From: an uncultured Solibacteraceae bacterium
GTDB taxonomy: Bacteria; Acidobacteriota; Terriglobia; 20CM-2-55-15
Assembly (NCBI GenBank): GCA_964584785.1
Contig: CAZPBY010000045.1
Location: 2,024 to 66,023 of the forward strand
DNA length: 64,000 nt
Direction: 5' to 3'
Numbering within the stretch: position 1 is the stretch's first letter; every line of letters starts with the position of its first letter. This document shows positions 15,502-33,200 of this stretch, piece by piece. Below the pieces are notes generated by a model. The model was not told the DNA's origin. It saw only the letters and a program-made list of their open reading frames with translations, and did not search any database. Both the position numbers and the translations under genes were made by a program.

Positions 15502-15916
15502 GCAAGAAGTGGCACCAGGTGCAAGATTCGCCGGCCGTTGAGTGTGCTTCAGATACACTTCCGTTCTAGTTCTGTCGGTACTTTCGAACGATTGTTCGGT
15601 TGCGAGTTAAGAATCTAGACTGCGCGCGGATCTATTCAGCGACAGCACTCCCGTTTCTTTGCACTGCGCAGGAAAGGCGCAAGTAAACGGTTCGCCGTTG
15701 CCAATTGTTGCAGGAGGCAGGCCGGTGGACGACTCCGGACATGTACCATCACATCCTATCGTGTTGCTTTTCCAGAAATTCTGGTCAGCAGCATCTTGAA
15801 ATCGGAATGTGTGGGGCCTCGAAGCGACAAAGATCGACCAGGGATGGTCACTAACTCAATTCAAGAGCGTGACCCTTTCACGGGTTGCTTTGCGCTTATT
15901 GCTTCAGAGGGAAACG

Positions 15917-18900
15917 ATGCTCCGTCCGAATTCTCGTTCTTTGAAACGTATTCAAGTTGTGTTCGCATTTCTCGCCACGGCGACAATTCTTTGGATTGTC
16001 GGCGACGCGATCGCTCAGCAGGCACCGCAGGCCGGCCGTAATGTCAATATGGTCTCCGGAACGGAATTGCCTGACGGCGATCCGTTCCGCCAGCGGCAGG
16101 ACGAACCTTCCATGGCGATCTCAACCCGAAACATCCAACACCATGTGGCCGGGGCGAATGACTATCGCACCGTGGATCTGCCTGGCGTGGTTGATGCCGC
16201 CGTCCATCGTGATTCGTGGCTGGGGATATTCAAATCGCTCGACGGTGGGAATACGTGGAAAAGTACGCTGATCCCCGGCTATCCGCAAGATACCTCACCC
16301 GAAGGGATGGCATCTCCGCTCAAAGGCTTTCAGGCCGGCTCTGACCCCGGTGTGAGAGCCGCCGCGGGCGGATTGTTCTACTACCTCGGAATAGTTTTCA
16401 ACCGCACGGAAGACAAGCAGGGTGTGCTCTTTGTTTCACGTCTGGTCGACAACAATAATAAGGAAGCCGGCGATCCCATCGTGTACGTGGACACAAACCT
16501 CGTACACAAAGGCAATAAGAAGCATTTCCTGGATAAGCCATGGATGGCGGTGGATGTTCCCCGTCAAAAGCGAGACGCGTGTTCGATCCGGGTGCCGGAT
16601 GGAAAGGGAGGTTTCTCGACACAAACTTTTCCGGGCGGAAATATCTACGTCTCGTACGCAGACATCGACGATAACGATCCGGATCCGGACGCGACGCGAT
16701 TGATGTTCACCCGTTCCACGAACTGCGGTGTCTCATGGGAAGGCCCGGTCCGGCTCAGCGATCCTCACACAGTCAATCAAGGTTCGGTGATCGCGATCGA
16801 CCCGAATACCGGAGCTGTTTACGTGTCGTGGCGCCAGATATTTATTTCGACCGCTTCGAAGCCCGCGCCGGACGCGATCATGATCGCAAGGTCGGTCAAC
16901 GGGGGAATTGCGTTTTCGAGGCCGGTAACGGTTTCCAAAATCGCTCCCTTTGATCTTCCCACACTGCCGGCGCCGGCGGACTGCACCGGCAATTCGTGCT
17001 ATCGGCGATTTCGAACAGACACGTTTCCGGCGCTTACCGTTGATGCCGGTGCGGATGCGAACCGTCCGGGCCGTGTGTATGTGGCGTGGTCGGAGCGTGG
17101 CCGGGGTCCACTTTTTGACGCTCGAATCGTCGTGGCGGTTTCTCAGGACGACGCAACCACGTTTTCTGCTCCGATCGCTGCCGATAATGTCGGAAAGCCG
17201 GGACATCAGATGATGCCGTCCATGATTTTTGCAGCCGGCAAGCTGATGCTGCTTTACTACGATTCCCGCGAAGATATGCGGCCGGTTCCTCTGGAATACC
17301 TCGCCGATCCCGCCGATCCGAACTTGCGTCTCTGGCATACCGTCGATGTGCGGGCGGCGATGGCCGATCCTTCGAACACGCCCGTGTTTGTTTCGTCGCA
17401 AATCTCCCGCTACCTGTACCTGCTCGACTCCAAGGGCAAACCGCGGCAGGCGCAGGCCAATCCCGTGAACTATCCCATGTTCAATCAGGGACGGGTTCCA
17501 TTCATTGGCGACTACATCGATGTAACCGCACCGCTCATGATCCAGGATCAGAGCGGGCAGTGGAAATTCAATACGCAGCCGACCAGCTCACCGGTGTTCC
17601 ATTCCACCTGGACGGACAATCGGGATGTCATCCCGCCGCCGAAACCGCAGAACTGGACCAAATACGCGCCCGCCGGATCACTGGGCGGAACGCAAAGTTT
17701 TTTCGATCCCAGCAAAACAATCGATGCCTGCGTCGCCGGAAACGCCGCCATGCGGAACCAGAACATCTATTCCGCACGGATCACGCAGGGCCTCGTCGTC
17801 AGTTCACCAGGCAACGCCAAGCCTCTTGGGAAGATTCAGCGCGCCTTCGTCGTTTACGTCGAGAACACGACCAACAAGACGCGCTTCTACCGGCTTGCGA
17901 TCAACGGACAGCCGGTTGGAGGACGCGCGTCTTTCCTGCAATTTGAACAACGCAATTTCCTGGACGTCACGGTGGCTCCGCGCTCGAGCATTTCGCGAGT
18001 CGTCTTTATGACGTCGACCAATCCTCACGCGAGTGTGCAAGTGGATGTCACGGAGATTGGCTCGATCGGCGGATCGCCGGTGGCCGGAGGCAATCAATCC
18101 GCCGTTGTTTTGAATCCGGATATTTTGAATCCCGACATCCTGAATCCGGACATCCTCAATCCGGATATTCTCAACCCCGACATTCTTAATGTTGAAGTGT
18201 CGAATCCCGACATCACGAATGCCGCGCTTCGACCGGACATCCTGAACCCGGACATTCTGAATCCCGACATCCTGAATCCGGACATTCTGAACCCGGACAT
18301 TTTGAATCCCGATATTCTGAATCCGGACATCCTGAACCCGGACATTTTGAATCCGGATATTCTGAATCCAGACATCCTGAACCCGGACATTCTGAATCCC
18401 GACATCCTGAATCCGGACATTCTGAATACGGATCCCGAGGTTGTGAACGCGGACAAATCGAAGCTTCAGATCAACGATTTGTTCTGGAATGTCACCAACA
18501 AGGGCAACACGACGTCTGTGTTCACGTTCAAGATGACGTTCCCGTCGAGGCCTCGCGGTTTCAAGTTTCAATTGCTGATCTACCGCACTTCTGCGACTCC
18601 GGCCGTCAGCGGCTGCGCTCCGATCCAGCAATCGCACGAACAACTGGTTGCGAACATCGTTAACCCGGACATTCTGAATCCGGACATCCTGAATCCCGAC
18701 ATTCTCAATTCGGACGTCCGCAATTCTTCGCTGTTCGTTGCTCCCGGCGACAGCATCCGGGTTCAGCTGCGTGTTTTCGATCTCGACAAGTTTGACGCGA
18801 ACGTCATTCAGATCAAGCCCTCAAAGTCTTCGACGACCAACGCCGCCAAAACCCTGATGGCATTTGCGGCGGAATCTCTGGATCTCGGCATATTCGAGGA

Positions 18901-21900
18901 TGTCCAGATCGGTGGACAACCGCTGACCGCGTCGGTCGTGAGTCAGGCGGTCGATACCGATAAGGCGCAGGCGGGAATCACGCAGCCGACGTCTGTTACG
19001 ACGCGGTTGACGGTGACCACAACGGTTCTTCCCTCCGGTCGAATTGGTGAATCATTTTCGAACCAACTGGTGGCCAGCGGCGGCACCGATCCATTGACGT
19101 GGGGTCTGGCCCCCGGTTCAACGCTTCCAGCGAACCTGACACTATCGCCGACTGGACTGCTGAGTGGAACGCCGGCGGCAACAGGTACATTCACCTTCAC
19201 GGTGATCGTGACCGATAGTGCGGGCCAGGCGGCGACGAGAGATCTCACTTTTGCGGCTTCACCACCACTGGGAACCCCGTCGCTGGTGTTCGTCACGCAA
19301 CCTGCGACTTGTGCCAACCCGGATCCCAACTGCGTGCGCCAAAACGCACCGATGACCCCTCCTGTCTCAGTGCGGGCGCTGGATGCGTCAGGCGCACCAA
19401 TTCCGGGTCTCGCGATCTCGCTGGCCATCGGCCTCAATGGCGGCGGTGGTGTCCTGGCCGGAGCGACGACGGCCACGACCAACCTTAACGGTATTGCCGG
19501 CTTCGGCGGTCTCACGATCAGCCAGCCCGGGACGTACACGCTCGTCGCCTCCGCGACGGGTTTCTCGCCGGTCACCACCAGTGTGTTCAATGTACTTCCC
19601 AGCGTGACGATCACGACGGTGTCCTTGCCCGATGGGATCCGCGGTGTTGTCTACGACACGACTGTCGCTTCAGTAGGAGGCGTCGGCGCGAAGACGTGGA
19701 CGATCACTACAGGCGCGCTCGCTTCGGGTCTGTTATTGGATTCGAACACTGGAAGGATTTCCGGACCTCCTGCAAGCTCCGGCACTTCGAACTTCACGCT
19801 ACAGGTTGCGGATGCCGGACAACCGCAACAGAGCAACAGCCGTTCGTTGTCGATTCGCGTTGCAGAGCCGCTGCTCATCCTGACTGCGGCCAGTTTGCCT
19901 GACGCAACGGCGAACACGAGCTACTCGCAGCAGCTTTCGAGTAGCGGTGGAATCCCATTCGTGACGTGGAGCGTGGCGATCGAGTCCAGTCTGCCCGCGG
20001 GACTGACGTTGACGGCCGGCGGCCTTCTTGCCGGCACTCCAACCACCGCAGGGGACTATGCATTTACGATCGTCGCCAACGATGCCAGTAACCCCGCGCA
20101 AATTGTTTCAAGGAATTTCAGTTTGCATGTTGCGGCATCGGGTCTGTCGCTGACATCACTGGATGTGAGCTCCGCGGCGCAAGGAGCAACGAAGAATGTG
20201 ACGCTGACCGGCACGGGCTTCTTAGCCGGCGCAACGAACGTTTTCTTCGGCGGCGGTGGTGTTCAGGTCTTATCGTCGGCCGTCAACTCGCCGACGAGCC
20301 TTACCGCAACAGTCGTCCTGGCCGACGCGCCGGCAACGCGCAGCGTGTTTGTCACAACGATCGGCGGTACGAGTAACACGTTGCCGTTCGTGATCACACC
20401 GAATACGTTATCCGCCGCTGGGGCTTCGGATGTGACACACCTCGCCGGCTCGACCGGCGGTCCGGGTTCAAGCAACGGCGCCGCAGGCTCCACAAAGTTC
20501 CGGCAGCCGTACGGAATCTTCGGCGCCGGCGCAAACCTTTACGTCACGGACTTCCTGAATCACACCATTCGTGGTGTGAGCCTTTCCAATGGCTCTTCGA
20601 CCACACTGGCTGGATCTGCCCTGAGTCCGGGTTCCGCGGACGGCACCGGGCCCGCTGCAAAGTTCTTCCATCCCGTCGGAGTGTGGTCCGACGGGACGAT
20701 CCTGTGGATTGCCGACAGTGACAACTCGCTGATCCGGAGAATGGTTTTGTCGACTGGTGTCGTCACCACGATCGCCGGATCGACCAGCGGCTTTGCCGAC
20801 GGTACCGGCACGGCAGCGCAGTTTAATTCTCCACGCAACATCTGGAGCGATGGCACGGATCTGTTTATTGCGGACACCGGAAACCATGTGATTCGCCGTA
20901 TGAATCTCGATTCGAAAGTCGTTACGACGATTGCCGGCAGTCCAGGCGTTAGCGGATCGACTGACGGAGTCGGAAGTGGCGCAAGTTTCAACAGCCCGAG
21001 TGGAGTGTGGGGAGATAGTGCGGGGAATCTCTACGTCGCGGACACCGGAAACAACTCCATCCGGTTGATCGTCATCTCATCTGGAACCGTGACAACGATT
21101 GCCGGCTCCACGCTGGGAGTTCCCGGAAGCGCCAACGGAACCGGCACGTCCGCCAGGTTCAACGGCCCGACCGGCATTGGAGGCAACGGCATCTTCCTGT
21201 TCATCGCGGATACCAACAATCACCTCGTGCGCGTCATCACGATCGACGGCCTCAATGTCGGCACGCTGGCCGGGAATCCTGGAGTGTCGGGTGATGCGGA
21301 CGGCGTGGGAGGTTTGGCCAGGTTCAATCTCCCGCTCGGCGTGTGGTTCGATGGAGACGCGAGTCTTTACGTGACGGATGGATTCAACCATGCCATTCGA
21401 AGCGTGAACGTTTTCACCGGCGCAGTCACCACATTCTCCGGTCAGCCGCCGCGAAGTGGAATTACTGACGCTTCGGCCGATGCGGCGCGATTCTTCGGTC
21501 CATCAGATGCCTGGGGCGATGGCGTCGGTAACTTGTATGTAACGGATCGTTTCAATCATTTGATCCGGAAGGTCGTGATCGCTACAGGCCAGGCGACGAC
21601 AATCGCAGGTCAGGCGGGAGTGTGCGGCACCGCGAACGGCATCGGCGCAGCCGCTCAGTTCTGCGATCCCGTCGGCATCTGGGGTGACGGTGTGAGCCTG
21701 TACGTCGCAAGCGGTGCGTCGCGAACCATTCGCAAGATTGTCATCGCGACAAGTCAGGTGACCACGATCGCAGGAACCGCATTCGCCGGCGGCTCCACGG
21801 ATGGCGTCGGAGCCGCGGCTCGTTTCAATCTGCCCAACGGAATCTGGGGCGACGGAAGCTCTCTGTACATTACGGACTTCACGAGCAACACCATTCGTAA

Positions 21901-22849
21901 GCTCGTGTTGAGCACAGGTCAGGTCACAACACCATTTGGCCTGGCCGGCGCTGCCGGAAGCACGGACGCTGTTGGTACTGCCGCCCGGTTCAACCGTCCC
22001 TCAAAAATATGGGGCAACGGCTCAACGCTCTTCGTCACCGATACAAACAACAACAAGGTTCGAAAGATTGTCCTCTCGACCGGACAGGTTTCGACGTTTG
22101 CGGGCAGCGGCTCATGCGGTTCCGCGAACGGAGTAGGGACGGCCGCGCAGTTCTGCGGCCCGACCGGGATCTGGGGCGATGGTTCCAAGCTGTATGTCAT
22201 CAGCTCGGGCGAAGTGCGTCAGATCTCGATGACAACTTCTGTGGTGACGACACTGGCCGGATTGTTCTCCGTTCCGGGATCCGACGACGCGAACGGTCCT
22301 TCGCCGATTTTCCAGGCTCCTGAAGGTTTGTGGGGAGACGGCAACCGGCTCTACATCGCCGACGTGAGGAATAACGCGATTCGCACTCTCTCGCCCGCAA
22401 TGGGCCCGGAGGCCGGCACCGTGGTCTACAACTTCAACGCGCCGCAGTTCGCGCCGGCGCAGATCACGCCGTTTACCGGCATTTCACCCAATATTGGAAG
22501 CCCCAATTTCCTGGCGGACTTCACTGCAAACACGTCGTTGTACGCGATCACCAGCAGTCCGCCGTGGGCTCTGTTCAGCGGACAGCATCTCAAGAGCCAG
22601 TGCTTTTGCTCGCAATCTCTGACGATCAACTTCAACACCCCCGTGTACGCGGCGAGTGTGAACTTCGCAAGCATCGGGGTCGGGTTCACATTGACGATCA
22701 CCACTGCGGTTGGCAGCGCCAGCGGGATCAGCGGCGTTTCCGGAGGAACCGTGTTTTTCTCAAGTGCGACGCCCTTCACCTCGATTCAACTGGGGACGGG
22801 CGTCTTCGCCATCGACAACCTGGTGCTGAGCACCGTTCCACGGCCGTAG
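15917..22849 (+). CDS. Giant secreted protein (~2310 aa): Asp-box/sialidase-like propeller, NPDIL repeats, putative-Ig and IPT-like domains, NHL-repeat propeller(s)
   Basis: SD-like GAGGG before ATG 15917; signal peptide; Asp-boxes (SLDGGNTW, STNCGVSW, SVNGGIAF); He_PIG-type units (LPAGLTLTAGGLLAGTPT); many NHL units (FNSPSGVWGDSAGNLYVADTGNNSIR). Confidence 0.85.
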   Translation: MLRPNSRSLKRIQVVFAFLATATILWIVGDAIAQQAPQAGRNVNMVSGTELPDGDPFRQRQDEPSMAISTRNIQHHVAGANDYRTVDLPGVVDAAVHRDSWLGIFKSLDGGNTWKSTLIPGYPQDTSPEGMASPLKGFQAGSDPGVRAAAGGLFYYLGIVFNRTEDKQGVLFVSRLVDNNNKEAGDPIVYVDTNLVHKGNKKHFLDKPWMAVDVPRQKRDACSIRVPDGKGGFSTQTFPGGNIYVSYADIDDNDPDPDATRLMFTRSTNCGVSWEGPVRLSDPHTVNQGSVIAIDPNTGAVYVSWRQIFISTASKPAPDAIMIARSVNGGIAFSRPVTVSKIAPFDLPTLPAPADCTGNSCYRRFRTDTFPALTVDAGADANRPGRVYVAWSERGRGPLFDARIVVAVSQDDATTFSAPIAADNVGKPGHQMMPSMIFAAGKLMLLYYDSREDMRPVPLEYLADPADPNLRLWHTVDVRAAMADPSNTPVFVSSQISRYLYLLDSKGKPRQAQANPVNYPMFNQGRVPFIGDYIDVTAPLMIQDQSGQWKFNTQPTSSPVFHSTWTDNRDVIPPPKPQNWTKYAPAGSLGGTQSFFDPSKTIDACVAGNAAMRNQNIYSARITQGLVVSSPGNAKPLGKIQRAFVVYVENTTNKTRFYRLAINGQPVGGRASFLQFEQRNFLDVTVAPRSSISRVVFMTSTNPHASVQVDVTEIGSIGGSPVAGGNQSAVVLNPDILNPDILNPDILNPDILNPDILNVEVSNPDITNAALRPDILNPDILNPDILNPDILNPDILNPDILNPDILNPDILNPDILNPDILNPDILNPDILNPDILNTDPEVVNADKSKLQINDLFWNVTNKGNTTSVFTFKMTFPSRPRGFKFQLLIYRTSATPAVSGCAPIQQSHEQLVANIVNPDILNPDILNPDILNSDVRNSSLFVAPGDSIRVQLRVFDLDKFDANVIQIKPSKSSTTNAAKTLMAFAAESLDLGIFEDVQIGGQPLTASVVSQAVDTDKAQAGITQPTSVTTRLTVTTTVLPSGRIGESFSNQLVASGGTDPLTWGLAPGSTLPANLTLSPTGLLSGTPAATGTFTFTVIVTDSAGQAATRDLTFAASPPLGTPSLVFVTQPATCANPDPNCVRQNAPMTPPVSVRALDASGAPIPGLAISLAIGLNGGGGVLAGATTATTNLNGIAGFGGLTISQPGTYTLVASATGFSPVTTSVFNVLPSVTITTVSLPDGIRGVVYDTTVASVGGVGAKTWTITTGALASGLLLDSNTGRISGPPASSGTSNFTLQVADAGQPQQSNSRSLSIRVAEPLLILTAASLPDATANTSYSQQLSSSGGIPFVTWSVAIESSLPAGLTLTAGGLLAGTPTTAGDYAFTIVANDASNPAQIVSRNFSLHVAASGLSLTSLDVSSAAQGATKNVTLTGTGFLAGATNVFFGGGGVQVLSSAVNSPTSLTATVVLADAPATRSVFVTTIGGTSNTLPFVITPNTLSAAGASDVTHLAGSTGGPGSSNGAAGSTKFRQPYGIFGAGANLYVTDFLNHTIRGVSLSNGSSTTLAGSALSPGSADGTGPAAKFFHPVGVWSDGTILWIADSDNSLIRRMVLSTGVVTTIAGSTSGFADGTGTAAQFNSPRNIWSDGTDLFIADTGNHVIRRMNLDSKVVTTIAGSPGVSGSTDGVGSGASFNSPSGVWGDSAGNLYVADTGNNSIRLIVISSGTVTTIAGSTLGVPGSANGTGTSARFNGPTGIGGNGIFLFIADTNNHLVRVITIDGLNVGTLAGNPGVSGDADGVGGLARFNLPLGVWFDGDASLYVTDGFNHAIRSVNVFTGAVTTFSGQPPRSGITDASADAARFFGPSDAWGDGVGNLYVTDRFNHLIRKVVIATGQATTIAGQAGVCGTANGIGAAAQFCDPVGIWGDGVSLYVASGASRTIRKIVIATSQVTTIAGTAFAGGSTDGVGAAARFNLPNGIWGDGSSLYITDFTSNTIRKLVLSTGQVTTPFGLAGAAGSTDAVGTAARFNRPSKIWGNGSTLFVTDTNNNKVRKIVLSTGQVSTFAGSGSCGSANGVGTAAQFCGPTGIWGDGSKLYVISSGEVRQISMTTSVVTTLAGLFSVPGSDDANGPSPIFQAPEGLWGDGNRLYIADVRNNAIRTLSPAMGPEAGTVVYNFNAPQFAPAQITPFTGISPNIGSPNFLADFTANTSLYAITSSPPWALFSGQHLKSQCFCSQSLTINFNTPVYAASVNFASIGVGFTLTITTAVGSASGISGVSGGTVFFSSATPFTSIQLGTGVFAIDNLVLSTVPRP
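18113..18706 (+). repeat. In-frame 15-bp tandem repeats encoding NPDIL/PDILN: 5 units (18113-18187), 13 units (18233-18427), 3 units (18662-18706)
   Basis: Counted from the DNA; the amino acids are identical but the codons vary synonymously. Confidence 0.95.
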
Positions 22850-22871
22850 TTTTGGAGTGAGACATTCTCCT

Positions 22872-25800
22872 ATGCGCGAATCACTGGTTAGTTGTGTTCG
22901 GTACGACGCTAAATGCGGCAAGTATTTATTCGCAGCGGTCGCTTTTCTGTTTTTGACTTGCAGTCCACTGCACGCCCAACTGAGTTTCAATAGCGGCAAC
23001 TTCGGCACGGTGGGTTTCAGTCAGAACGCCTTCTCGTTGACACCATCGGGAGGTACGGGAAATTACACTTTCTCGTATGCGCCCGGTGCCGCCACCATTC
23101 CGGGTTTTCGTGTAACGAACCGACCGAATGTGCCGAATTTCTTTTCGGCGGGTAGTACAGGCGGTCTCGTCGGAATCGCGGCGGTACCGGGAACTTACTC
23201 GACCACGATCCGTCTGACGGATAACGGCTCGGCTTTGTTTGTGGATAAAGCCGTCAGCTTTACGGTGACCACCGTGGATATTGCAGGTGGCCCCCAAAGC
23301 GGCTACGGAGTCGGTGACACGGTGAGCTTCCCATTCTGGGGTGTGGGCGGAACCGGTCTACCATACACGTTTTCTCTGGCGTCCGGCACATTGCCGCCGG
23401 GTTTGACATTGAATTCATCGACGACTGCCATCGATGGTCTGCTCAAACTCGAAGGTACGCTGACGACGGCCGGAACGTTCGGCTTCAATCTCAAAGTCAC
23501 CGATAGCGCAACGAACACACGCACTGTTGGTTACTTCATTACTGTTTCGCCTTTACGCCTCGTCCTGACGAACCACTTTTTGCCACCGATCAATGTGAAC
23601 CAGCTGTTTTCGCAGACACTGATAGCGTCGGGATGTTCAGGCACTTGCACTTTCTCGCTCGTGTCCGGTGACGCTCTCCCCGCCGGTCTGACCCTCAGTT
23701 CGGCAGGAGTGATCAGCGGGACTCCTACCGCGCTCACCTATGGAACGGCGTTTACAGTTGTCGTTACCGATGCGGCGAACAACACGATGAGTCGTCGTCT
23801 GTCGATGGCGGTGATACCGGACATACCTCAGCCTTTGGCGATATCGACCACATCGATTGGCGACACTGTGGTCGGATCCAATTTCTCGTGGGGCATCACT
23901 CCAAGAGGTGGTCTTCCGCCTTACAGTTTTTCGTTTGATTCACCATCCAGTTTGCCGCCCGGCAGTTTTATGTTCCCGACGGAAGGAACAGCCGCGGTGT
24001 CCTGGGACCCGAACTGGGGTATGTTTCGAGCCAGACCCTTAGTGACCGGTAATCGCGATTTTGTCATGAGGGTCACGGACAGTGCCGGAAACACGGCGAC
24101 TCGCCTTATTCCGTGGCGGGTGACGTCGATTGGTGCGTACTACAGCAACCAAAGCCTTCCAGTAGGTGGAACCGCAACACCAGTTTTGGGGAAACCTTAC
24201 GCACAGCCTCTCATTTTGCTCGGCGGCACACTTCCGTACACGGTCACGCCCGTAAACCTCGCAGGTCTGTCGGTTGATGCGGATGGCATGGTGTCGGGCA
24301 CTGCTGCCGAGGCCGGACGATTCTTGCCCTTCAGTTTTAACATCCAGGATTCTTCCATTCCGCCCAACAACTATTCCTGGAGCGGAAATATTACGGTCGA
24401 TGCGCCTTCAACGACCACGCTTGCCCTGACCGGCGGGGATTTCGGCGTTTTTCAAAAGGGCGTCCAGTCGACGATCACTTTGTTCGCGGGCGGATCGCCG
24501 GTGAATCCGCCGAATTTTGTGGTGACTATTCTTAGCGGCTCGTTGCCTCCCGGACTCCGATTACTGACCGTCGGTGATTTCAACAACGTGGGTGATATCA
24601 CGCGGGCCGCGCAAATCGCGGGCATTCCGACAACAACCGGCTCGTTTTCCGCACTCCTGAACGTTCAGGATGCAGCCGCCAACATTGGTCAGCGACAGCT
24701 GAAATTCCGTGTGAGCGATATCGGGTTTGTCACGACGGGTGTGGCTCCTGGCACGGTGGGCGTTCCCTACACTCAGACGTTCGAGGTGAGGGGCGGAACG
24801 ATGCCGTACACATTCACATCGAATGTAACTCTGCCAGGCGGTCTAAGCCTCAACGCCCTGACGGGGACGCTGAGCGGTACTCCGACGAGCTCAAACTCCA
24901 CTTCGTTTGGACTCGTCGTTACGGATGCGAACGGCGACAGCATTGTCCGCAACTACACGGTGAATATCTACGACATCCAAATTACGAATCCCAACCTGCT
25001 GCCGAACGCCATTTTCGGCGAATCGTATACCGTGAACTTCGCGGCATTGCCCGCTGGACCATATGCCTGGACAGCAACGGGGCTTCCGACAGGTCTCACG
25101 CTGGATCCTGTCACAGGCGTGCTCTCCGGAGCACCGATTGGTACTGGAACATTCACTGTGACTGTCACTGCCGGAACTTCAAGTCATGCGGTGAACAAAA
25201 CGTTCACACTCATCGTCGCCTCGCGCTCGATCAGTACGATTTTGACCGGTCTTCCCACGGCATCGCTTGGTGACTTCGTCGTAGGCGCCTTCGTCAACAC
25301 CATTCTTGGTATCGTCGGAGGTACGCCGCCATACACGATCTCTGTGGTGGCGGGGTCCGCACTTCCACCTGGACTGGCGCTTGCACCTTCGAACACAGCG
25401 TCGGGCACGGCTGGATTTGGCCGAACCGCAATTGTGGGAATTCCAACCACAAAGGGCAGTTACTCGTTTCAACTGAGGTATTCGGATTCGGCAGGCGTAA
25501 GCGTCGTTCGAACGGTGACCATGCGCGTCAGCGGACTTGCACTGGCCACAACCACGCCCGGTTTGGGTACGGTGAACGTTCCCTACACGACGCAGTTGTT
25601 CGGCAGCGGCGGCACCGGTTCTTACATGTTTGCGCTTGCGGACGGTCTGACCAACGTGCTGGCGCCCGGTCTCAGTTTGAGCGCGTCCGGCGTCATTTCC
25701 GGAACACCCACCGCGACGGGCACCTTCACCACGACCATTTTGCTGAGCGACGGTGTAGACACCCGACAGCAAAACATAACGATCACCATCAATGCGACCA

Positions 25801-28800
25801 GCGATCTTCGCCGTATTGACTTTGCCTTTGGTCCGATCCTTGTCGACGCCCCGATGGGCCGGGCGTTCACATCGACGTTCAATCCAACGGGCGGTTCTGG
25901 AACGCATACGTGGTCGGTTGTTTCGGGATTACCGCCGGGCATGCAGCTTCGCGCCGGATCGACCCTGCCGGCAGGATTCACGCCGCCGACTGCGTTCTTT
26001 ACAGGCGTACCTACGACTCCCGGAACCTTCACGGTCCGCATTCGCGTCGACGACTCGACCGGCAATTTTGGCATTCGTACCGCGACGATGAAGGTCACGC
26101 CATTGCGCTTTGCCCCGGCGACGGTACCGCACACGTTGGGCGTCACGCTACCCCCGCTTCAGGAGGGTTCACCGTATTCGTTCACTTTTACGGCGTACAA
26201 CAAGACCGGAACGCTGACATTCGAACCGCTCTTGGGAGCTTTCATGCCCGCCGGAGTGAGTCTGAACTCCACAGGGGTGTTGAGCGGTACACCATCCGAG
26301 ACGGGCAATTTCCTTGAACCGTTCCGCATGACCGATTCCGGTGGAAACTCGATTCAAACTACCGGCCTCGGGCTCAGCGTCTATCCAGCGGGACGACCGA
26401 TTGGTGTAAATGGGTTGACGGTTGCGACTCTGGCAAACGCGACAAAAGGAATTCCATACACCAAGAATCTGAATGATCTGTTGATCCCCGGTTACGGCAC
26501 AGCGCCATTCAATTGGACCGTCACCAGCGGGTCGTTGCCCGACGGAATGTCGATCGTGGGCAACCTCTTAACGGGAACTCCGACCGCAACAGGTTCATCA
26601 ACCTTCACGCTCAAGGCCACCGATGCGAACGGCACGCAGCACGTCATACCGGGGTTGGTGCTAGCAGTCGCGACGATGAGCATGTCACCTGCGCCGGGCG
26701 TCCTGCCGCCGGCCATCGCGGGAGTTCCGTACACGCAGACCTTCGTTGCCGCCGGCGGCATTTCACCGATCACGTTCCGCCTGGGGTTCGGTTCCGATCT
26801 GCCTGTTGGCCTGACGTTGTCATCGGGTGGTGTGTTGAGCGGAATACCGACCACTTCGGGACCATTCAGTTTGTTAATCGAAGCGGTGGACATCACCGGC
26901 GCAACTTTCCTGCAGCGGTACACGCTGAATGTGGCGCCCGTCGGGACGGTGTTCCCATCGCTGACTGCCGTTCCATCGAGCATCAACCTGAACTATGTTC
27001 GCGGCAATCCGAATCCTGCGCCTATTCCCGTCAATGTGGGAAGCACCTCGGGCACGTTGAATTTCACAGCCGAGGCCGCCGGCGGCTCGTGGATTTCAGT
27101 CGCGCCTGGGAGCGGATCCACTCCCGGATTCGTGACGCTGAGTTTCTCGATGACGGGACTGGCCGCCGGCGTCTACAACGGTGCATTGAACGTCACCGCG
27201 GCGTCTGCCGTGAATTCACCATTGTCTTTGCCGGTGATGCTGACGGTGACTGACGCCTTGCCGTGCAGTTTCGCATTGAACCCGGCTTCTTCTTCGATCG
27301 GCGCTGCTGGAGGATCGCTGAGTTTCGATGTCACCACGGATCAGGCCTGCAACTGGACGGCGTCGACCACTGCTTCCTTTATCACGATCAACTCTCCTGG
27401 AAGCGGCACCGGAACAGGCACCGTGAATCTGTCCATACAGCCCAATACCACATCCAACACACGGTCGGGCAGCGTGACGGTGCAAGGACTGACGTACACC
27501 GTCACGCAGTTCGGCACGGCGTGCTCCTTCACGTTGATACCCAACTCCATCAACGTGGATTCGTTTGGCGGCGTCGGTACGATTAGTGTTCAAGCTTCCG
27601 ATTCGACTTGCGCGTGGACAGCGACTCAGACCGACTCGTGGATTTCCGCGAATCCTCCGAACGCGACGGGTTCGGTGAATGTCGACGTCACGGTTCAAAG
27701 TACGAACAGCACATCGAGCCGCGTCGGAAGCATCACGATCGGTGGGCAACCGCTCACGGTTAACCAGGCGGGTCTCGGTTGCTACTATTTCCTGAGCAGC
27801 AGTGGTTCTCCCTCGTTCTCCTCGTCGGGAGGTACGACTTCTGTGGATCTCACCACTCCAGCGGGTTGCGCCTGGAAAACGGATGCAGGGCCGAGTTGGA
27901 TCAAGGTGACGGCTGGACAATCGGGCTTTTCAAGTGGAAAGGTAACGCTGTCGATTGCTCCGAATTCCAGTACGGCGGCCCGGTCGGCGACAGTTCTGAT
28001 AGCCGATCAGGAGTACGACGTCAGCCAGGATGGTGTTTCGTGCAGCTTCAGTGTCGGTGTCGATAACACACTGTTTGCCGTTGGTGGCGGCGCCGGCAGC
28101 ATCGCGATCACGGCCACGCCGAAAGTTGCGGGCGGCTTCTGTCCATGGGTCGTGTCGTCGAACGCTCCGTGGCTCACACCTGCGGTGTCTTCGGGCAACG
28201 GTTCGCAGAATGTGTCGTTCAATGTAACCGCGAATGGCGGCACCGCAGCTCGCAGCGCAACGTTGAATGTGGCGGGGCAGAACATTGTGATCACCGAATC
28301 CGGACCGGTTTGTGAATTCAACCTGCGGTCTTCCGCAGCTTCAATGCCATTTGGCGGTGGCGCGAATTCAGCGGGCGTGGTCACCGCGAACGGGTGCGGC
28401 TGGGTCGCGACGTCGAATGCGCCCTTTATCGAGATTTCGAGCGGTACTCCGGGCACCGGCACAGGCGACGTGAACTTCAACGTCCAGCCGAACAACACTG
28501 GAACCGATCGCGTCGGGTCACTCACCATCGCCGGAAAAACATTCACGGTGACGCAGGCGAAGGCGCCGTGCTCGATCGTTCTCGGTTCCGGTACGTTCAA
28601 CGCCGGACCATTCGGAGGAGCCGGTTCCTTCTCGTACACAACCACTGTCAGCAACTGTGAACATACGGTGCTCAGTTACTCGAGCATGCTGAACGTCACT
28701 TCCGCGACTTACTCGGGAACGGCAGGTACCGTGAACTTCTCCGTCGATCCTAACGGTTTCGCAGCGGCGCGATCCGGCGTGATCCGAGTGGGCGAAGAAA

Positions 28801-29105
28801 GCTTTACCGTTAATCAGGATCCGTCACCGTGCCAGTACACGTTGACCTTATTCAGCGCGACGTTCGATCGACTGGGCGGGCCCGGCTCCATACCGATGAC
28901 TTTCGCTCCAGCCGCATGCGGTCCGGCCGGCGCTGTGATTAAAGGTCCGGCATCGATGATCACTCTCGGCGATGTCCTGAAGGATGGGTCGACATACAAC
29001 CAGCTCTTCACGTCGGCAATCTATCAGTCGTTCATCAACTACACACGAACCGCTCAGATCATCATCAACGGGCAGATATTTACCGTTAAGCAGACGTCCT
29101 GGTAG
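22872..29105 (+). CDS. Giant secreted putative-Ig (He_PIG) + BACON repeat protein, paralogue A (~2077 aa)
   Basis: Signal peptide ending SPLHA|QLSFNSGNFG; tandem GG..PY....LP.GL.L..SG.LSGTPT units; one BACON_2-like and seven Cys-paired BACON repeats; ends FTVKQTSW. The start could instead be GTG 22857. Confidence 0.85.
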   Translation: MRESLVSCVRYDAKCGKYLFAAVAFLFLTCSPLHAQLSFNSGNFGTVGFSQNAFSLTPSGGTGNYTFSYAPGAATIPGFRVTNRPNVPNFFSAGSTGGLVGIAAVPGTYSTTIRLTDNGSALFVDKAVSFTVTTVDIAGGPQSGYGVGDTVSFPFWGVGGTGLPYTFSLASGTLPPGLTLNSSTTAIDGLLKLEGTLTTAGTFGFNLKVTDSATNTRTVGYFITVSPLRLVLTNHFLPPINVNQLFSQTLIASGCSGTCTFSLVSGDALPAGLTLSSAGVISGTPTALTYGTAFTVVVTDAANNTMSRRLSMAVIPDIPQPLAISTTSIGDTVVGSNFSWGITPRGGLPPYSFSFDSPSSLPPGSFMFPTEGTAAVSWDPNWGMFRARPLVTGNRDFVMRVTDSAGNTATRLIPWRVTSIGAYYSNQSLPVGGTATPVLGKPYAQPLILLGGTLPYTVTPVNLAGLSVDADGMVSGTAAEAGRFLPFSFNIQDSSIPPNNYSWSGNITVDAPSTTTLALTGGDFGVFQKGVQSTITLFAGGSPVNPPNFVVTILSGSLPPGLRLLTVGDFNNVGDITRAAQIAGIPTTTGSFSALLNVQDAAANIGQRQLKFRVSDIGFVTTGVAPGTVGVPYTQTFEVRGGTMPYTFTSNVTLPGGLSLNALTGTLSGTPTSSNSTSFGLVVTDANGDSIVRNYTVNIYDIQITNPNLLPNAIFGESYTVNFAALPAGPYAWTATGLPTGLTLDPVTGVLSGAPIGTGTFTVTVTAGTSSHAVNKTFTLIVASRSISTILTGLPTASLGDFVVGAFVNTILGIVGGTPPYTISVVAGSALPPGLALAPSNTASGTAGFGRTAIVGIPTTKGSYSFQLRYSDSAGVSVVRTVTMRVSGLALATTTPGLGTVNVPYTTQLFGSGGTGSYMFALADGLTNVLAPGLSLSASGVISGTPTATGTFTTTILLSDGVDTRQQNITITINATSDLRRIDFAFGPILVDAPMGRAFTSTFNPTGGSGTHTWSVVSGLPPGMQLRAGSTLPAGFTPPTAFFTGVPTTPGTFTVRIRVDDSTGNFGIRTATMKVTPLRFAPATVPHTLGVTLPPLQEGSPYSFTFTAYNKTGTLTFEPLLGAFMPAGVSLNSTGVLSGTPSETGNFLEPFRMTDSGGNSIQTTGLGLSVYPAGRPIGVNGLTVATLANATKGIPYTKNLNDLLIPGYGTAPFNWTVTSGSLPDGMSIVGNLLTGTPTATGSSTFTLKATDANGTQHVIPGLVLAVATMSMSPAPGVLPPAIAGVPYTQTFVAAGGISPITFRLGFGSDLPVGLTLSSGGVLSGIPTTSGPFSLLIEAVDITGATFLQRYTLNVAPVGTVFPSLTAVPSSINLNYVRGNPNPAPIPVNVGSTSGTLNFTAEAAGGSWISVAPGSGSTPGFVTLSFSMTGLAAGVYNGALNVTAASAVNSPLSLPVMLTVTDALPCSFALNPASSSIGAAGGSLSFDVTTDQACNWTASTTASFITINSPGSGTGTGTVNLSIQPNTTSNTRSGSVTVQGLTYTVTQFGTACSFTLIPNSINVDSFGGVGTISVQASDSTCAWTATQTDSWISANPPNATGSVNVDVTVQSTNSTSSRVGSITIGGQPLTVNQAGLGCYYFLSSSGSPSFSSSGGTTSVDLTTPAGCAWKTDAGPSWIKVTAGQSGFSSGKVTLSIAPNSSTAARSATVLIADQEYDVSQDGVSCSFSVGVDNTLFAVGGGAGSIAITATPKVAGGFCPWVVSSNAPWLTPAVSSGNGSQNVSFNVTANGGTAARSATLNVAGQNIVITESGPVCEFNLRSSAASMPFGGGANSAGVVTANGCGWVATSNAPFIEISSGTPGTGTGDVNFNVQPNNTGTDRVGSLTIAGKTFTVTQAKAPCSIVLGSGTFNAGPFGGAGSFSYTTTVSNCEHTVLSYSSMLNVTSATYSGTAGTVNFSVDPNGFAAARSGVIRVGEESFTVNQDPSPCQYTLTLFSATFDRLGGPGSIPMTFAPAACGPAGAVIKGPASMITLGDVLKDGSTYNQLFTSAIYQSFINYTRTAQIIINGQIFTVKQTSW

Positions 29106-29120
29106 AAGGAGACGAATACC

Positions 29121-30194
29121 ATGTCAGTCAACACGCTATTGAAACGAGTAACAGCGATAGCCGCGATTTTGCTGATTGTCGCGGGCTTCTTTACCGCCCC
29201 GCTGCGAGCGGCGGACAACTTCGGATATACCGCGACCGGCAATGTCGCGTATTCCTATGTAGATGTCTCCACAACCGGCACCGCCGTACTTGCCAATGCG
29301 GACGATGCTACGGCTTTGCTCACACTGCCGTTCGGATTCCGTTTTTACGGTGTCACGTACACGAGTCTGTGCGCGAGTACCAACGGCTTGATTGCGTTCG
29401 GCGGCTGTCCAACCGGAGACATCACGAACCTCGACCTGACGGTGCAATCGCCGACAGGCAACCTGCCGTTGATCGCACCATTCTGGATGGACCTGACGTT
29501 CGCGATCCCGGGCGCCGGCAGCATCATTTACCAGACGCTCGGCGCAGAGCCCGCACGGCGTTTTGTCGCTCAATGGAAGGGCGCATTCGCGTTGAATCAA
29601 CCGAGCCCGCTCGATTTTCAAGTCATCCTGTACGAAGGCACGAACCAGATTCTGTTTCAATATCAGAACGTCGAAACGGCCAACGCCGAGATCAGTAAAG
29701 GCAAGAGCGCGACGGTCGGCATTCGGGCAACGGACGGGCAGGCAAATGGGAATCGCGTGCAGTGGAGCTATCGCACGGCCGTGTTGACCAACCGCTCGGC
29801 GATTCGCTTCGAACCGCCCACAGCAATCCCGGTGACGATTGATCTGAAGCCGGACAGCAATCCGAATTGCGTCAATCCAACTTCCAGAGGAACCGTGCCT
29901 GTCGCGATCTTCGGCACGAGCAAGTTCGCTGTTGCAGACATCGATCAGTCCAAACTCCGCTTCGGAGGCGCAGCCGCGCGAAGCTGCGCTGTTGACGACG
30001 TAGGCACAAAGGATGGACTTCCTGATCTTGTATGTCACTTCGAGACTACGGAAGTAACCACCTGGCCGGCCGCGGGAGCGGATTGCGGAAAGATCAACCT
30101 TACCGGCAGCTTGAAATCGGGGTTTGGAATCACCGGTTCGGACATCGCTTGCCGTGTTGCGGAACGTACCTGTAAAGCTGGGCCGACACCCTAG
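29121..30194 (+). CDS. Secreted nidogen(NIDO)-like domain protein with C-terminal IDxKP domain
   Basis: SD AAGGAG; signal peptide; LPFGFRFYG..Y...STNGLI.F and IAPFWMDL; C-terminal IDLKPDSNPNCVNPTSRGTVPVAI...DGLPDLVCHF. Confidence 0.7.
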   Translation: MSVNTLLKRVTAIAAILLIVAGFFTAPLRAADNFGYTATGNVAYSYVDVSTTGTAVLANADDATALLTLPFGFRFYGVTYTSLCASTNGLIAFGGCPTGDITNLDLTVQSPTGNLPLIAPFWMDLTFAIPGAGSIIYQTLGAEPARRFVAQWKGAFALNQPSPLDFQVILYEGTNQILFQYQNVETANAEISKGKSATVGIRATDGQANGNRVQWSYRTAVLTNRSAIRFEPPTAIPVTIDLKPDSNPNCVNPTSRGTVPVAIFGTSKFAVADIDQSKLRFGGAAARSCAVDDVGTKDGLPDLVCHFETTEVTTWPAAGADCGKINLTGSLKSGFGITGSDIACRVAERTCKAGPTP

Positions 30195-30249: not shown

Positions 30250-33200
30250 ATGTCCAGACTACTATCGCGTTCTTGCTTCGTCCTCGTGGTGCTGTCCGCC
30301 CTATGCAGTCCGCTTCACGCGCAACTGAATTTCAACAGCGGCAATTTCGGCACGTTGAGTTTCGGTCAAGCGGTACTCTCCTTCGATCCGTCGGGCGGGA
30401 CTGGACCTTATACATTTTCGTATGCGCCCGGCGCTAGCATCATTCCAGGCTTTCGCGTGACGAACCGTCCTGACGTCCCCGTTTGGTTCGGGCCGAATAC
30501 AACAGGCGCCTTGGTTGGTATAGCAACGCCGGACACATGCGCGCCAACCGGCAACTGCAGTACGACTATTCGCCTCAGCGATGCCAACGGATTTATTGAT
30601 CGTGTCGTGTCGTTTTCAGTGACTTCGGTCGACATTGGAGGCAGCACGTTTTCCGGCTATGGCGTGGGTGATCGCATTGACTTCCGATTTTGGGGCGTAG
30701 GCGGTTCGGGGTCGTATACATTCACGCTTGATTCGGGGACGTTGCCGCCGGGAACGCAGATCCACAATCAAGCGGGCGCGTTTACAGGCATTTCAGTCGA
30801 TGGGGTGCTGACAACCGCAGGCGGTTACAACTTTTCACTGAAGCTTACGGATAGTGCGAACCATTCGGTGACACGCGGTTACTTCGTTTCTGTCTCGCCA
30901 CTACACTTGGTACAGGATCGTATCTTGCCTGCGGCAAACGTGGGCCTGTTCTATAGTCAAACTCTAACTGTAACGGGCTGCACCGGGACTTGTACCTTCT
31001 CAGTCGACGAGGCTATTGGTCTACTTCCCACGGGCTTCACCCTTTCACCGGCTGGGGTACTGAGCGGCACACCGACGTTTTCGAGCTTCTTTAACAACTT
31101 CACGTTGATCATTACCGACGGCATAAACACGATCCGCCGGCGCATGCAGTTAACCTCTCTGCCTGTGACCCCAACACCATTGACCGTAAGTACAACGTCA
31201 GTGTCCGATGTGGTTGTCGGGTCAGGATCCTTTCCAGGGATTTCAGGCTCCGGTGGATTCCCACCGTACAGTTTCAGTCTGGATAGCTCTTCAAGTCTGC
31301 CAGCAGGTGCTTTCATCTTGCCGGCAGCGGCACTCGGGCCGGAGTTTAACCCGCTGCAGGGTTATGTTGGATCCAGAGTACTTGCCGCAGGCGATCACGA
31401 TTTCGTGATTCGCATCATCGATAGCGCAAACAACACGGCCACTCGACCACTGCCATGGCGGGTTACTAACTTGACTACGAACCAATGCTGCATTTCGACG
31501 GCGGTTTTCGGAGTGCCACTTACACCGTACGCGTTGGTTATCATGGGTGGAACGCCTCCTTATACCGTAGCCCCGAACACCATAGCTGCAGGACTTACAA
31601 CCGACAATAATGCGATCATCTCAGGAACCCCGAAGGAGATCGGACAGTTCCTGACACTGAACCTCACTATTCAAGATTCGGCCAACCCCAAGAACAGTTT
31701 TACGCTATCGGGTTACACAACTATTACGGCATCACCGACTTCAACAGGCCTGCTCGTGTCCGGTGGAGACTTTGGGCCGCTGCAAAAGGGTGTTCAAACT
31801 GCTTTCAGCATCTCGGCGTCGGGTTCGTCAGCGTTACCGAGGAACTTCACGGTCAGCATTCAGGAAGGCTCGCTGCCTCCAGGAATGACGCTTCTGACAG
31901 GAAACAACTTTAACAACAGCGGAAACGTAGATATCGCTGCGCAGATCGCCGGAGTGCCGACGGTTGCCGGTGTGTATAGTGTGCTGTTGCGTGTGCAGGA
32001 TGGTGCGGGCAATATTGGCCAGCGTCAAATTCGCATCAGAGTCAGTAGTCTTGCGTTCGTCACATCGACGTTAGCCGTAGGCTCCGTCGGCATTCCGTAC
32101 AATCAGACGATTGAATTCCGTGGTGGTCAGGCTCCATACACCCTCACTTTGACAAACGGAAGCCTGCCGACGGGGCTGTCGCTGAACGGCCCTACGATCA
32201 GCGGTACTCCAACGACGAGCAATTCCACATTCGCCGGAATACGTATTACCGACGCCACCGGAGACTCTATCATCCGAAACTTCACGTTGAATATTTACAG
32301 TCTCCAGATTACCAATCCCAACATTCTGCCGACAGCGTACTTCGGTGAAGTCTATTCGCCTGTTACGTTCGTGGTTAGCCCTCCGGGCTCTTACACGTGG
32401 ACTGCGGTTGGGATTCCACTCGGCCTCACGCTGGATAGCACAACCGGCGTTTTGTCCGGCACACCGATTTCATCCGGCTCCTTTAACATCACCGTCACCG
32501 CCGGTACCAGCAGTACTGTGGTTGTTAAAACGTTCACGATGTTTATCGCAGTCCGCTCGACCACGGGCGTGTTAACGGGTCTACCATCCACCTTCGGCGA
32601 CGTCTTCGTCGGCTCAACCTTAACGACGACATTGGGAGTGTCTGGAGGGACTCCGCCATACACCATCGCACTCGCTCCCGGTTCAATCCTTCCACCAGGT
32701 CTCGCGATTGTGCCTGCCACAAGCATCAACGGAAACGCGTTTTTTGGCCGATATTTTCTGGCGGGCGTGCTGACGACGGCGGGTGACTACAGTTTCCGGT
32801 TGAGGTATACCGACGGGGCTGGTCTTACGGTGGACCGAACCATAACGATGCGAGTGGTTTCGATTGGAGTAGCTACAACGTCACTCGGCCTCGGTACAGT
32901 GAATGTTCCTTACTCCACGCAACTCTTCGGCGTTGGCGGCTCGGGTCCGTTTACGTTCTCGTTGTCCAATATTGCGAACAACATCCTGCCGCCGGGACTC
33001 ACGTTGAGCTCTTCCGGTGTGGTTTCGGGAACGCCTACTTCCACCGGCAGCTTTGGGTTCACCGTTGATCTGACTGATGGCGTATCGACGCGGCAGCAAA
33101 GCGTCGTCATCACCATAAACGCGACCAGCGATCTGCGACGTATTGACTTTGGCACTGTGATCCCAGTGACGCTCTCGATGGGAAGGGGTTTCGCGACAAC

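Follow-up and report, generated by a model that had tools for sequence, protein, structure and literature searches.

The window analyzed here is a stretch of 64,000 nucleotides from an uncultured Solibacteraceae bacterium (assembly GCA_964584785.1, contig CAZPBY010000045.1, positions 2,024 to 66,023 of the forward strand). In the list of open reading frames (ORFs), ORF 15809..22849 (+) corresponds to a gene for a secreted multidomain protein of 2346 amino acids (aa), whose orthologue P0103 is 68% identical; an exact look-up of the window protein returned no record. The methionine M37, at position 15917, is likely the real start of this ORF, and a hydrophobic signal-peptide-like stretch follows it. 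In frame +2 of the ORF, we found an array of the pentapeptide NPDIL with 20 perfect units (5+12+3). This array and its relatives in other bacteria are the subject of this report.

Five perfect NPDIL units form block 1 (18113..18187, +). The irregular units NVEVS, NPDIT and NAAL (18188..18229, +) lie between blocks 1 and 2. Block 2 (18230..18424, +) consists of RPDIL (18230-18244) and then 12 perfect units (18245-18424), and it is followed by a non-repeat tail of 17 aa, NTDPEVVNADKSKLQIN (18425..18475, +), which links the array to a downstream beta-sandwich. Block 3 starts 79 residues past block 2. It contains three perfect units (18662-18706) and NSDVR, and forms a loop of about 20 residues (18662..18721, +) in the downstream sandwich. 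An earlier sequence-only reading of this DNA had counted 21 NPDIL units in blocks of 5, 13 and 3. The run and the blocks of 5 and 3 are real, but block 2 has 12 perfect units plus RPDIL, and the total is 20; the counts of 13 and 21 arose because RPDIL stands directly ahead of the perfect units of block 2. The degenerate units that it had listed (NVEVS, NPDIT and NSDVR) are present, together with the four-residue NAAL. NAAL (18218-18229) causes a one-residue slip of the period-5 register. The orthologue P0103 has DAVL in place of NAAL. Thus, the slip of the register is conserved.

The main array lies between two immunoglobulin (Ig)-like beta-sandwiches. Sandwich 1 (17777..18112, +), directly 5' of the array, was predicted by AlphaFold2 (AF2) to be all-beta, with a predicted local distance difference test (pLDDT) score of 88-97 in the second of two runs. 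Sandwich 2 (18467..18781, +), which bears the motif DxxWxVTNxGNT and is kept in all homologues, scored 74-92 in the same run. With Foldseek, the flanking sandwiches showed generic similarity to Ig, fibronectin type III and macroglobulin-type sandwiches. The loop in sandwich 2 that carries block 3 is repeat-bearing in some homologues and non-repetitive, shorter or missing in others. The earlier suggestion that block 3 loops out of a folded beta-rich domain is supported.

The N-terminal domain of about 600 aa (15917..17725, +) was assigned from motifs and a family profile as a remote BNR/Asp-box sialidase-like beta-propeller. It carries the family motifs GDYID, WTDNRDV and RNQNIY, and three Asp-box-like motifs are found at aa 143, 303 and 445 of the window protein. 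The family profile of this domain matched solved sialidases and BNR/Asp-box proteins (E 7e-5 to 1e-3), and Pfam BNR_2 was detected in seven of the nine homologues tested (best E 1.1e-8). The window copy gave no Pfam or NCBIfam match, and it is tied to the sialidase-type BNR propellers solely via the family profile. When the N-terminal 768 aa were searched against the PDB sequences as a single sequence, a chance match to LptA was the only one obtained. The domain is conserved in at least 307 species. Downstream of sandwich 2, an adhesin-like part (19013..21064, +) was recognized by Pfam: it comprises He_PIG Ig domains (1.5e-25), a CarboxypepD_reg-like domain (31.2 bits, just below the cut-off) and the start of an NHL repeat region (1.7e-11). 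NHL-like repeats, with ScyF-like NHL similarity, extend beyond 21064 towards the C-terminus.

For the distribution of the family, one genome per species was scanned with the conserved WTDNRDV...RNQNIY stretch as the query, and 80 loci were kept. The flanking region is encoded in at least 307 species genomes, mostly of Acidobacteriota. The main taxa are Vicinamibacteria, Terriglobia, Bryobacteraceae, Thermoanaerobaculia and Blastocatellia, and a few genomes are labelled Myxococcota, Actinomycetota, Methylomirabilota or other phyla. The common architecture is a BNR/Asp-box propeller, an Ig-like sandwich, a period-5 array and a second Ig-like sandwich, and almost all of the 80 loci have the array 110-145 residues after RNQNIY. 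The window ORF carries every element of this family (GDYID, WTDNRDV, RNQNIY, sandwich 1, the period-5 array and the DxxWxVTNxGNT sandwich 2), and, over the aligned array regions, it shares 32-59% identity with 40 loci. In the first protein search, Acidobacteriota metagenome-assembled genomes had already yielded fragments that share this layout but differ in their units (NPDMM, NPDIA, NPDLE, NPDIS, NPNIT, NPDIE, NPSIT and NPDID). In many long-read metagenome homologues (L002, L064, L038; P0011, P0037, P0050), frameshifts within or close to the array interrupt the reading frame and give Arg/Ser-rich out-of-frame tails. Because of these frameshifts, public protein sets mostly hold fragments of the family, and gene callers start the downstream piece at MRNQNIY.

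The repeat unit is clade-specific, and the family consensus is P/A/Q/L - D/N/S - I/L/V - x - N. When the arrays were aligned from the C-terminal flank, a common register was obtained. Position i-2 is P/A/Q/L/T/S, i-1 is D/N/S/E/A/G/R, i is I/L/V, i+1 is any residue, and i+2 is Asn, which is nearly invariant. Over the clades, i+1 ranges through E, D, S, T, A, Q, N, G, R, P, L, M, Y and W. Proline occupies i-2 in about 87% of the arrays (61/70 loci) and in nearly every window unit. Mixed arrays also exist (NPDIV with NPDIA; NPNIT with NPNVT; NPEIA with NPDIA).

The length of the segment between the two sandwiches was then compared among 70 loci. Both the median and the mode were 105 aa, which equals 21 units; exactly 105 aa was found in 22 loci, over seven unit types, and 95-125 aa in 56. 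The outlying short segments measured 26, 42, 45 and 70 aa, and the longest reached 149 aa. In the window protein the segment is 121 aa long (104 aa of repeats plus the 17-aa tail). Irregular units also recur at set places. Nearly all of the 105-aa arrays that were examined have a non-proline unit 6 (N-A/S/L/V-E-V/I-x), five Pro units stand ahead of it in most of them, and a second irregular unit, N-V-x-V-A, occurs near unit 13 or 14. NVEVS of the window array is this family-wide unit 6 (consensus N-A-E-V-Y). In some lineages, the first five units are swapped for a non-repetitive stretch of equal length, such as NPEGS VSPLA QPDGT TADIG TLEIY. Furthermore, the mean pairwise aa identity of the array was 0.68 (0.79 when i+1 was ignored), higher than that of the two flanking sandwiches (0.59 and 0.49); the array changes more slowly than the folded domains on either side. 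These results support the view that the array is a structural module under selection with a strongly preferred length. They also answer the check on homologues and copy number proposed in the sequence-only reading, since the family spans at least 307 species genomes and 21 units is the modal length.

At the DNA level, the 20 perfect units are written in 13 versions, which differ at synonymous sites only. The codon counts are AAT/AAC 14/6, CCG/CCC/CCA 13/6/1, GAC/GAT 16/4, ATT/ATC 13/7 and CTG/TTG/CTC/CTT 13/3/3/1. Across the 20 units, 31 differences from the consensus unit AATCCGGACATTCTG were counted, and every one is synonymous, compared with 11 of the 45 possible single-base changes to this unit; the all-synonymous count is partly circular because perfect units alone were counted. 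A young minisatellite expanded by slippage, or a contingency locus of variable copy number, would make the identity of the peptide a by-product of the DNA. In agreement with such an origin, Tandem Repeats Finder reported period 15 with 21.7 copies and an additional period-45 row (score 345), and a weak three-unit repeat was observed, the identity at lag 3 being 13.67/15 versus 12.2-12.6 at other lags (permutation p = 0.018). However, the window units shared a mean pairwise identity of 12.61/15 bases, whereas 12.21 was expected from the codon usage of the gene itself. The same was found in 69 arrays (68 loci and the window), in which units of the same peptide shared on average 12.68 of 15 bases versus 12.31 expected for random synonymous codons. 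The ADIEN array described below behaved alike in this test. Thus, the synonymous sites are saturated across the family.

Copy number was also stable. In P0103 the blocks are 5, 12 and 3, compared with 5, 13 and 3 in the window when RPDIL is counted. Moreover, units correspond position by position between species. In L010/L011, the most closely related pair of species, orthologous units shared 12.95 bases and non-orthologous units 11.40. When six Terriglobales arrays were compared, five had NPDIT variants at the same four positions. Thus, the arrays evolve as ordinary sequence and not by continuing homogenization. On synonymous saturation and copy-number stability, we rejected the slippage minisatellite, which is largely refuted and in our judgment highly improbable. 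Free codon variation, and selection on the peptide instead of recent slippage, had both been claimed from the sequence; the random-codon equilibrium of the 69 arrays, the one-unit difference to P0103 and the slow evolution of the array relative to its flanks uphold these claims. The residues at i-2 and i+1 are uniform within one array and switch between clades. This uniformity would fit rare length-preserving conversion followed by long drift. Two antisense ORFs over the array, 17804-18643 (-) of 279 aa and 18094-18456 (-) of 120 aa (e.g., MSGFRMSGFR...), were considered as genes and rejected as by-products of the periodic DNA.

We next compared the array with the A(D/N)LXX pentapeptide-repeat family (PF00805). 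Proteins of this family with the Rfr fold (MfpA, Qnr, Np275/276, Rfr23, Alr5209 and HetL) are likewise built from tandem five-residue units, and their register is similar, with a small or hydrophobic residue at i-2, D/N/S at i-1, L/I/V at i, any residue at i+1 and N or a G-like residue at i+2. Extracellular examples exist, namely the SV2 luminal domain and, according to PMC12864828, a secreted YjbI-type protein. The window unit is read in this register as P(i-2) D(i-1) I(i) L(i+1) N(i+2). Membership of the family calls for at least eight contiguous five-residue repeats, and the window array has about 21 in succession (18113-18424), with one four-residue slip. A structure-based consensus, (A/C/S/V/T/L/I)(D/N/S/K/E/I/R)(L/F)(S/T/R/E/Q/K/V/D)(G/D/E/N/R/Q/K), has been published (PMC7337050). 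D at i-1 and N at i+2 of the window unit fit it, and Pro at i-2 falls outside it. In the census of about 347 solved units in the supplementary table of the same paper, Pro at i-2 occurs in none, Asn at i+2 in 32 and Gly at i+2 in 109; Ile at i (18 units) is minor but allowed, and Leu at i+1 (12 units) is rare.

The array differs from the known family in its Pro at i-2, in the nearly invariant Asn at i+2, where Gly is commonest in the family, and in Ile, not Leu or Phe, at i. Its units are also near-identical within one protein, and it is an internal module between Ig-like domains and not a free-standing domain. At E <= 10, PF00805 gave no match to the window array or to the NPDIE, QNISN, LNISN, QDIAN and xPDIG arrays. 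With Pfam and NCBIfam, for the whole protein and for the array alone, the only matches on the array were to Extensin_1, below the threshold, and to SctX, which is spurious. The Extensin-like model PF02095, precomputed on many homologues, is the sole Pfam model touching the array. Its scores were 20.7-57 bits (20.7 for the whole window protein and 26.9 for the array alone), below the cut-off of 105, and the match is compositional, caused by Pro-rich periodic sequence, and not one of membership.

In contrast, several relatives carry arrays at the equivalent site that exceed the PF00805 gathering cut-off (20.2 bits). L015 and L027, of the Myxococcota type, possess about 25 ANLSN/AHLSN units (119.4 bits, E 4e-35). 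ADIEN arrays (P0031, P0033 and P0035) scored 29.0 bits, and the SNLIN array of P0076 scored 28.1 bits. All three kinds are in phase with the P-D-I-L-N reading. One proline-type member with NPDLA units is labelled as a YjbI-like pentapeptide-repeat protein by the Joint Genome Institute. In a neighbor-joining tree built from the flanking domains, the ADIEN proteins nest within the PDIEN/PDIDN/PDVEN clade, QNISN is sister to PNISN with the LNISN clade sister to both, and QDIAN nests among PDxxN arrays. The codons of Pro, Gln and Leu are one base apart.

A profile hidden Markov model (HMM) was constructed from 16 proline-type arrays, including that of the window, and searched against all PDB sequences. 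At E <= 0.001, the matches were pentapeptide-repeat proteins, with the exception of the phage tail tip fibre protein 7z4b (E 7e-4). The best were the designed beta1 series (4yei, 4yfo and 4yc5; E 8e-12 to 2e-11), followed by Np275/276 (2j8k; 7.7e-5) and Rfr23 (2o6w; 8e-4). Alr5209 (6omx) was matched at 4e-3, and weaker matches to QnrB1, HetL and others were observed. P was aligned with A, D with D/N, and I with L. Controls of equal composition and periodicity, in which the arrays were reversed or D and I were swapped in each unit, gave no match to pentapeptide-repeat proteins in the PDB. In hhalign against an unrelated canonical repeat protein, a single 25-column stretch was aligned with 81% probability (E 1.2e-5). 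With a pure NPDIL 12-mer as the query, no solved proline-type repeat was found in the PDB, and only a short PDVVK tail in FabZ (5buw) was matched.

Taken together, these comparisons of sequences support the interpretation of the NPDIL array as a putative proline-substituted offshoot of the A(D/N)LXX pentapeptide-repeat superfamily, either derived from it or sharing an origin with it. The sequence-only reading had stated that the array does not belong with the A(D/N)Lxx family. This statement is contradicted by the in-phase arrays that pass PF00805, the nesting of ADIEN, the PDB profile matches and the null controls; because the profile is order-specific and the scrambled controls gave no match, the denial is unsupported. 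The pentapeptide-repeat superfamily itself is known. What is new is its proline-type branch, which is widespread and has been described neither in papers nor in models: no relevant paper turned up when full texts were searched for NPDIL and for six types of doubled unit, a literature search combining Rfr-fold terms found nothing, and Pfam and NCBIfam have no model for the proline-type array.

We then considered whether the array is an ordinary pentapeptide-repeat domain that Pfam misses only through sequence drift. Such a domain would fold into about five coils of the canonical Rfr beta-helix, which is right-handed and quadrilateral. The PF00805-passing relatives, the nested ADIEN clade and the PDB profile matches agree with this. 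In addition, the canonical phi/psi of i-2 are about -72/148 degrees (PMC7337050), and these angles suit proline. The corner residue i+2, however, presents a difficulty. In type II corners its phi/psi are +64 to +72/8 to 15 degrees, and type I corners have -127/32 degrees (PMC7337050). In ideal geometry, a psi of 8-32 degrees before Pro brings N(i) to within 2.3-2.5 A of C-delta(i+1), and the clash of N with C-delta has been reported to delimit an excluded strip for pre-proline residues at -40 < psi < 50 degrees (PMC1201153). Thus, Asn-Pro cannot be accommodated sterically in the canonical type II and type I corners. Because Asn before Pro is barred from the corner psi of about 10 degrees, the backbone of the array would have to differ from the canonical Rfr coil. 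The absence of Pro at i-2 from solved units and of a PF00805 match to the window array, the failure of AF2 to build a helix despite canonical relatives in the alignment, and the Foldseek search, in which no pentapeptide-repeat structure was matched, also disagree with an ordinary domain. We therefore regard it as improbable.

The structure prediction was performed twice. In AF2 run 1 (14 sequences), the main array showed pLDDT of 23-32. In run 2 (48 sequences, including ADIEN and ANLSN relatives), the values were 35-64 for the array, in which no helix was formed, and 85-97 for the flanks. The loop of block 3 scored below 50 in run 1 and about 80 in run 2, without regular secondary structure. 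The AlphaFold check named in the sequence-only reading thus yielded confident beta-sandwiches on both sides, but for the main array pLDDT stayed at 23-64 and no fold was built.

The low confidence in both runs fits a disordered or elastic linker. In such a linker, each NP(D/N/S)-hydrophobic unit would form a transient Asx-Pro/type I turn, and the array would act as an entropic spring or flexible stalk. N-P-[D/N/S] fits positions 1-3 of a type I turn, for which these residues are the textbook preferences, and NPEG and QPDG motifs occupy the first-unit site in lineages with a non-repetitive start. Flexible systems of this kind include the NANP/NPNA repeats of the Plasmodium circumsporozoite protein and the VPGVG repeats of elastin. 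The NANP/NPNA region has an Asn-Pro-Asn/Asp core with Asx-Pro/type I turns and is considered flexible; like the array, it is a long homogeneous tandem repeat of a surface protein with low structure-prediction confidence. Its unit, however, has four residues and no conserved aliphatic, there is no homology, and the array here differs in its 105-aa mode and in being more conserved than the folded flanks. Short NPDIL runs that serve as loops or linkers elsewhere, and array lengths from 26 aa in the family to several hundred residues in a sister family, also agree with a linker. On the other hand, a disordered linker does not explain why the array is more conserved than the neighboring folded domains, why the modal length is exactly 105 aa over different unit types, or why variant units stand at fixed positions. 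Nor does it explain the nearly invariant hydrophobic i and Asn i+2, or the swapping of whole arrays to canonical Ala-type units recognized by Pfam. A disordered linker is possible, but we consider it doubtful.

The sequence-only reading had also proposed a solenoid or beta-roll with Asn/Asp ladders that binds Ca2+, mineral or ice, or self-polymerizes. The invariant Asn at i+2, the acidic or polar i-1 and the secretion of the protein by soil bacteria would be compatible with a cation-dependent structure, and NPDIE/NPDID relatives have two acidic residues per unit, i.e., about 40 negative charges per array, for which counter-ions would be needed for compact folding. The nonapeptide beta-roll of RTX proteins (GGxGxDxUx), a Ca2+-dependent solenoid, resembles the array in being secreted and in its Asp/Asn-rich repeats, and the doubly acidic variants might need counter-ions. 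However, RTX repeats have period 9 and are Gly-rich, whereas the array has period 5 and is devoid of Gly. Pfam and PDB profile searches revealed no sequence or profile similarity between the two, no Gly-rich Ca2+-binding motif of the RTX kind is present, and AF2 predicted no roll. Since i+1 ranges from E/D to L, M, Y and W over the clades, no single ligand chemistry is conserved. The proposed binding and self-polymerization are speculative and unlikely, although we rate them above an ordinary Rfr domain. A new solenoid with an Asn ladder, in contrast, is possible.

Based on these results, the NPDIL run is probably the form that an old period-5 array takes in this genome. The array would be a spacer under selection for a preferred length, and a proline-type offshoot of the pentapeptide repeats with a non-canonical fold. 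As a structural spacer or stalk, the array would set the distance and orientation of the propeller and sandwich 1 from sandwich 2 and the distal He_PIG/NHL part. The side chains at i-1 and i+1 would face outward and give each clade its own surface chemistry, which would be Asp plus Leu in the window protein and doubly acidic in many relatives. Rare events that left the length unchanged would have homogenized the units in clade ancestors, and purifying selection would have held them since. Asx-Pro/type I turns at N-P-D with an Asn ladder are one option for the corners.

Because the canonical type II and type I corners are barred, the fold would be a quadrilateral solenoid with modified corners or else a string of turns that is semi-rigid, and we regard the two as nearly balanced, with a slight leaning to the former. 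The whole-array interchange with canonical units, the 21-unit preference, the strong conservation and the invariant Asn and aliphatic residues argue for the solenoid. A more tentative proposal, which we find possible but would not expect, is that the proline-type arrays constitute an unseen class of quadrilateral beta-solenoid. In this class, Asx-Pro/type I corners at N-P-D would be shifted relative to Rfr, the Asn ladder would be buried around an Ile core, and whole arrays would interconvert with the Rfr coil through a single substitution in each unit (Pro to Ala, Gln or Leu). If true, this would represent a new solenoid geometry and natural whole-array fold switching under a length constraint.

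Several observations weigh against a selected spacer with a solenoid-like fold. The length is not universal, since L028, L031, L049 and L063 have only 26-70 aa, and the array boundaries, set by regular expressions, may be wrong by several residues. Only the domain architecture points to a role as a spacer. The three-unit block works as a loop, short NPDIL runs are apparent linkers in unrelated proteins, and the arrays of the sister family run to several hundred residues. AF2, run without an ADIEN/ANLSN positive control, gave no confident array structure, an outcome that equally fits a disordered or elastic linker. The lack of an AF2 fold, the short blocks and arrays, the several-hundred-residue sister arrays and the exposed hydrophobics at i+1 are also the arguments for a string of turns. 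Finally, a soluble solenoid would not usually expose twenty Leu residues to the solvent, as would be the case at i+1.

Among beta-solenoids, the pentapeptide-repeat proteins are a textbook family, and the current models miss a proline-type branch present in at least 307 species genomes. A structure of the array would either extend the solenoid repertoire or show that a pentapeptide-repeat-like sequence is able to form a turn-rich rod. The family also offers a clean natural case for the persistence of perfect peptide repeats, in which synonymous sites are randomized and 21 units are preferred, and in which one or two residues are replaced over whole arrays in different clades. In addition, it provides a basis for naming many giant surface proteins that are annotated as hypothetical in Acidobacteriota, a soil phylum that is dominant and poorly characterized.

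The spread of similar arrays outside the family was examined by a full-library phmmer search with the window array alone. The search returned 2798 representatives at E <= 1e-3, 871 at E <= 1e-10 and 104 at E <= 1e-30. Many of these are family members with the array at residues 700-900, and the best matches include NPDIL-type orthologues (P0087, P0103 and P0167). Unrelated tandem pentapeptides (SPDAF, SPDLF and ERPDI) and eukaryotic low-complexity proteins are also among the best matches, and because such tandem pentapeptides are included, the counts are upper bounds for the family. A sister family (P0089, P0090, P0094, P0096 and P0126), likewise among the best matches, carries RTRDQNVYS where the present family has MRNQNIYT; its propeller is related, and the sandwich 2 motif is present. 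Its arrays extend over several hundred residues of NPTLL, NPDLL, NPNLL or NPDVL units, their length is clearly not fixed, and ten-residue super-units, N-x-hydrophobic-hydrophobic-x-N-P-x-L-L, are frequent. P0091 and P0200 are unrelated large secreted proteins with 20-70 tandem SPDAF/SPDLF units, which share the pattern P-D-hydrophobic-x-S with the window array. Judging from these sequences, proline-type pentapeptide arrays may form a wider unannotated class. Runs of two to six NPDIL units occur as apparent linkers in P0022, P0023, P0025 and P0024; the unrelated carriers of such runs are one phage-like protein, a VgrG fragment, an Hcp-like protein and an AroD/AroE fusion.

Two paralogous giant ORFs, 22857-29105 (+) of 2082 aa and 30250-36441 (+) of 2063 aa, lie directly 3' of ORF 15809..22849, and the three form a cluster of giant surface-protein genes. 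Each of the downstream paralogues possesses a signal-like N-terminus, eight or nine He_PIG Ig domains and several BACON/BACON_2 domains. Between them is a 357-aa ORF (29121-30194), for which no Pfam match was obtained. Further downstream, the window encodes a 528-aa protein (38088-39674, -) that consists almost entirely of ankyrin repeats (Ank_2, 3.7e-70). Proteins of this near-all-ankyrin type are uncommon in free-living bacteria.

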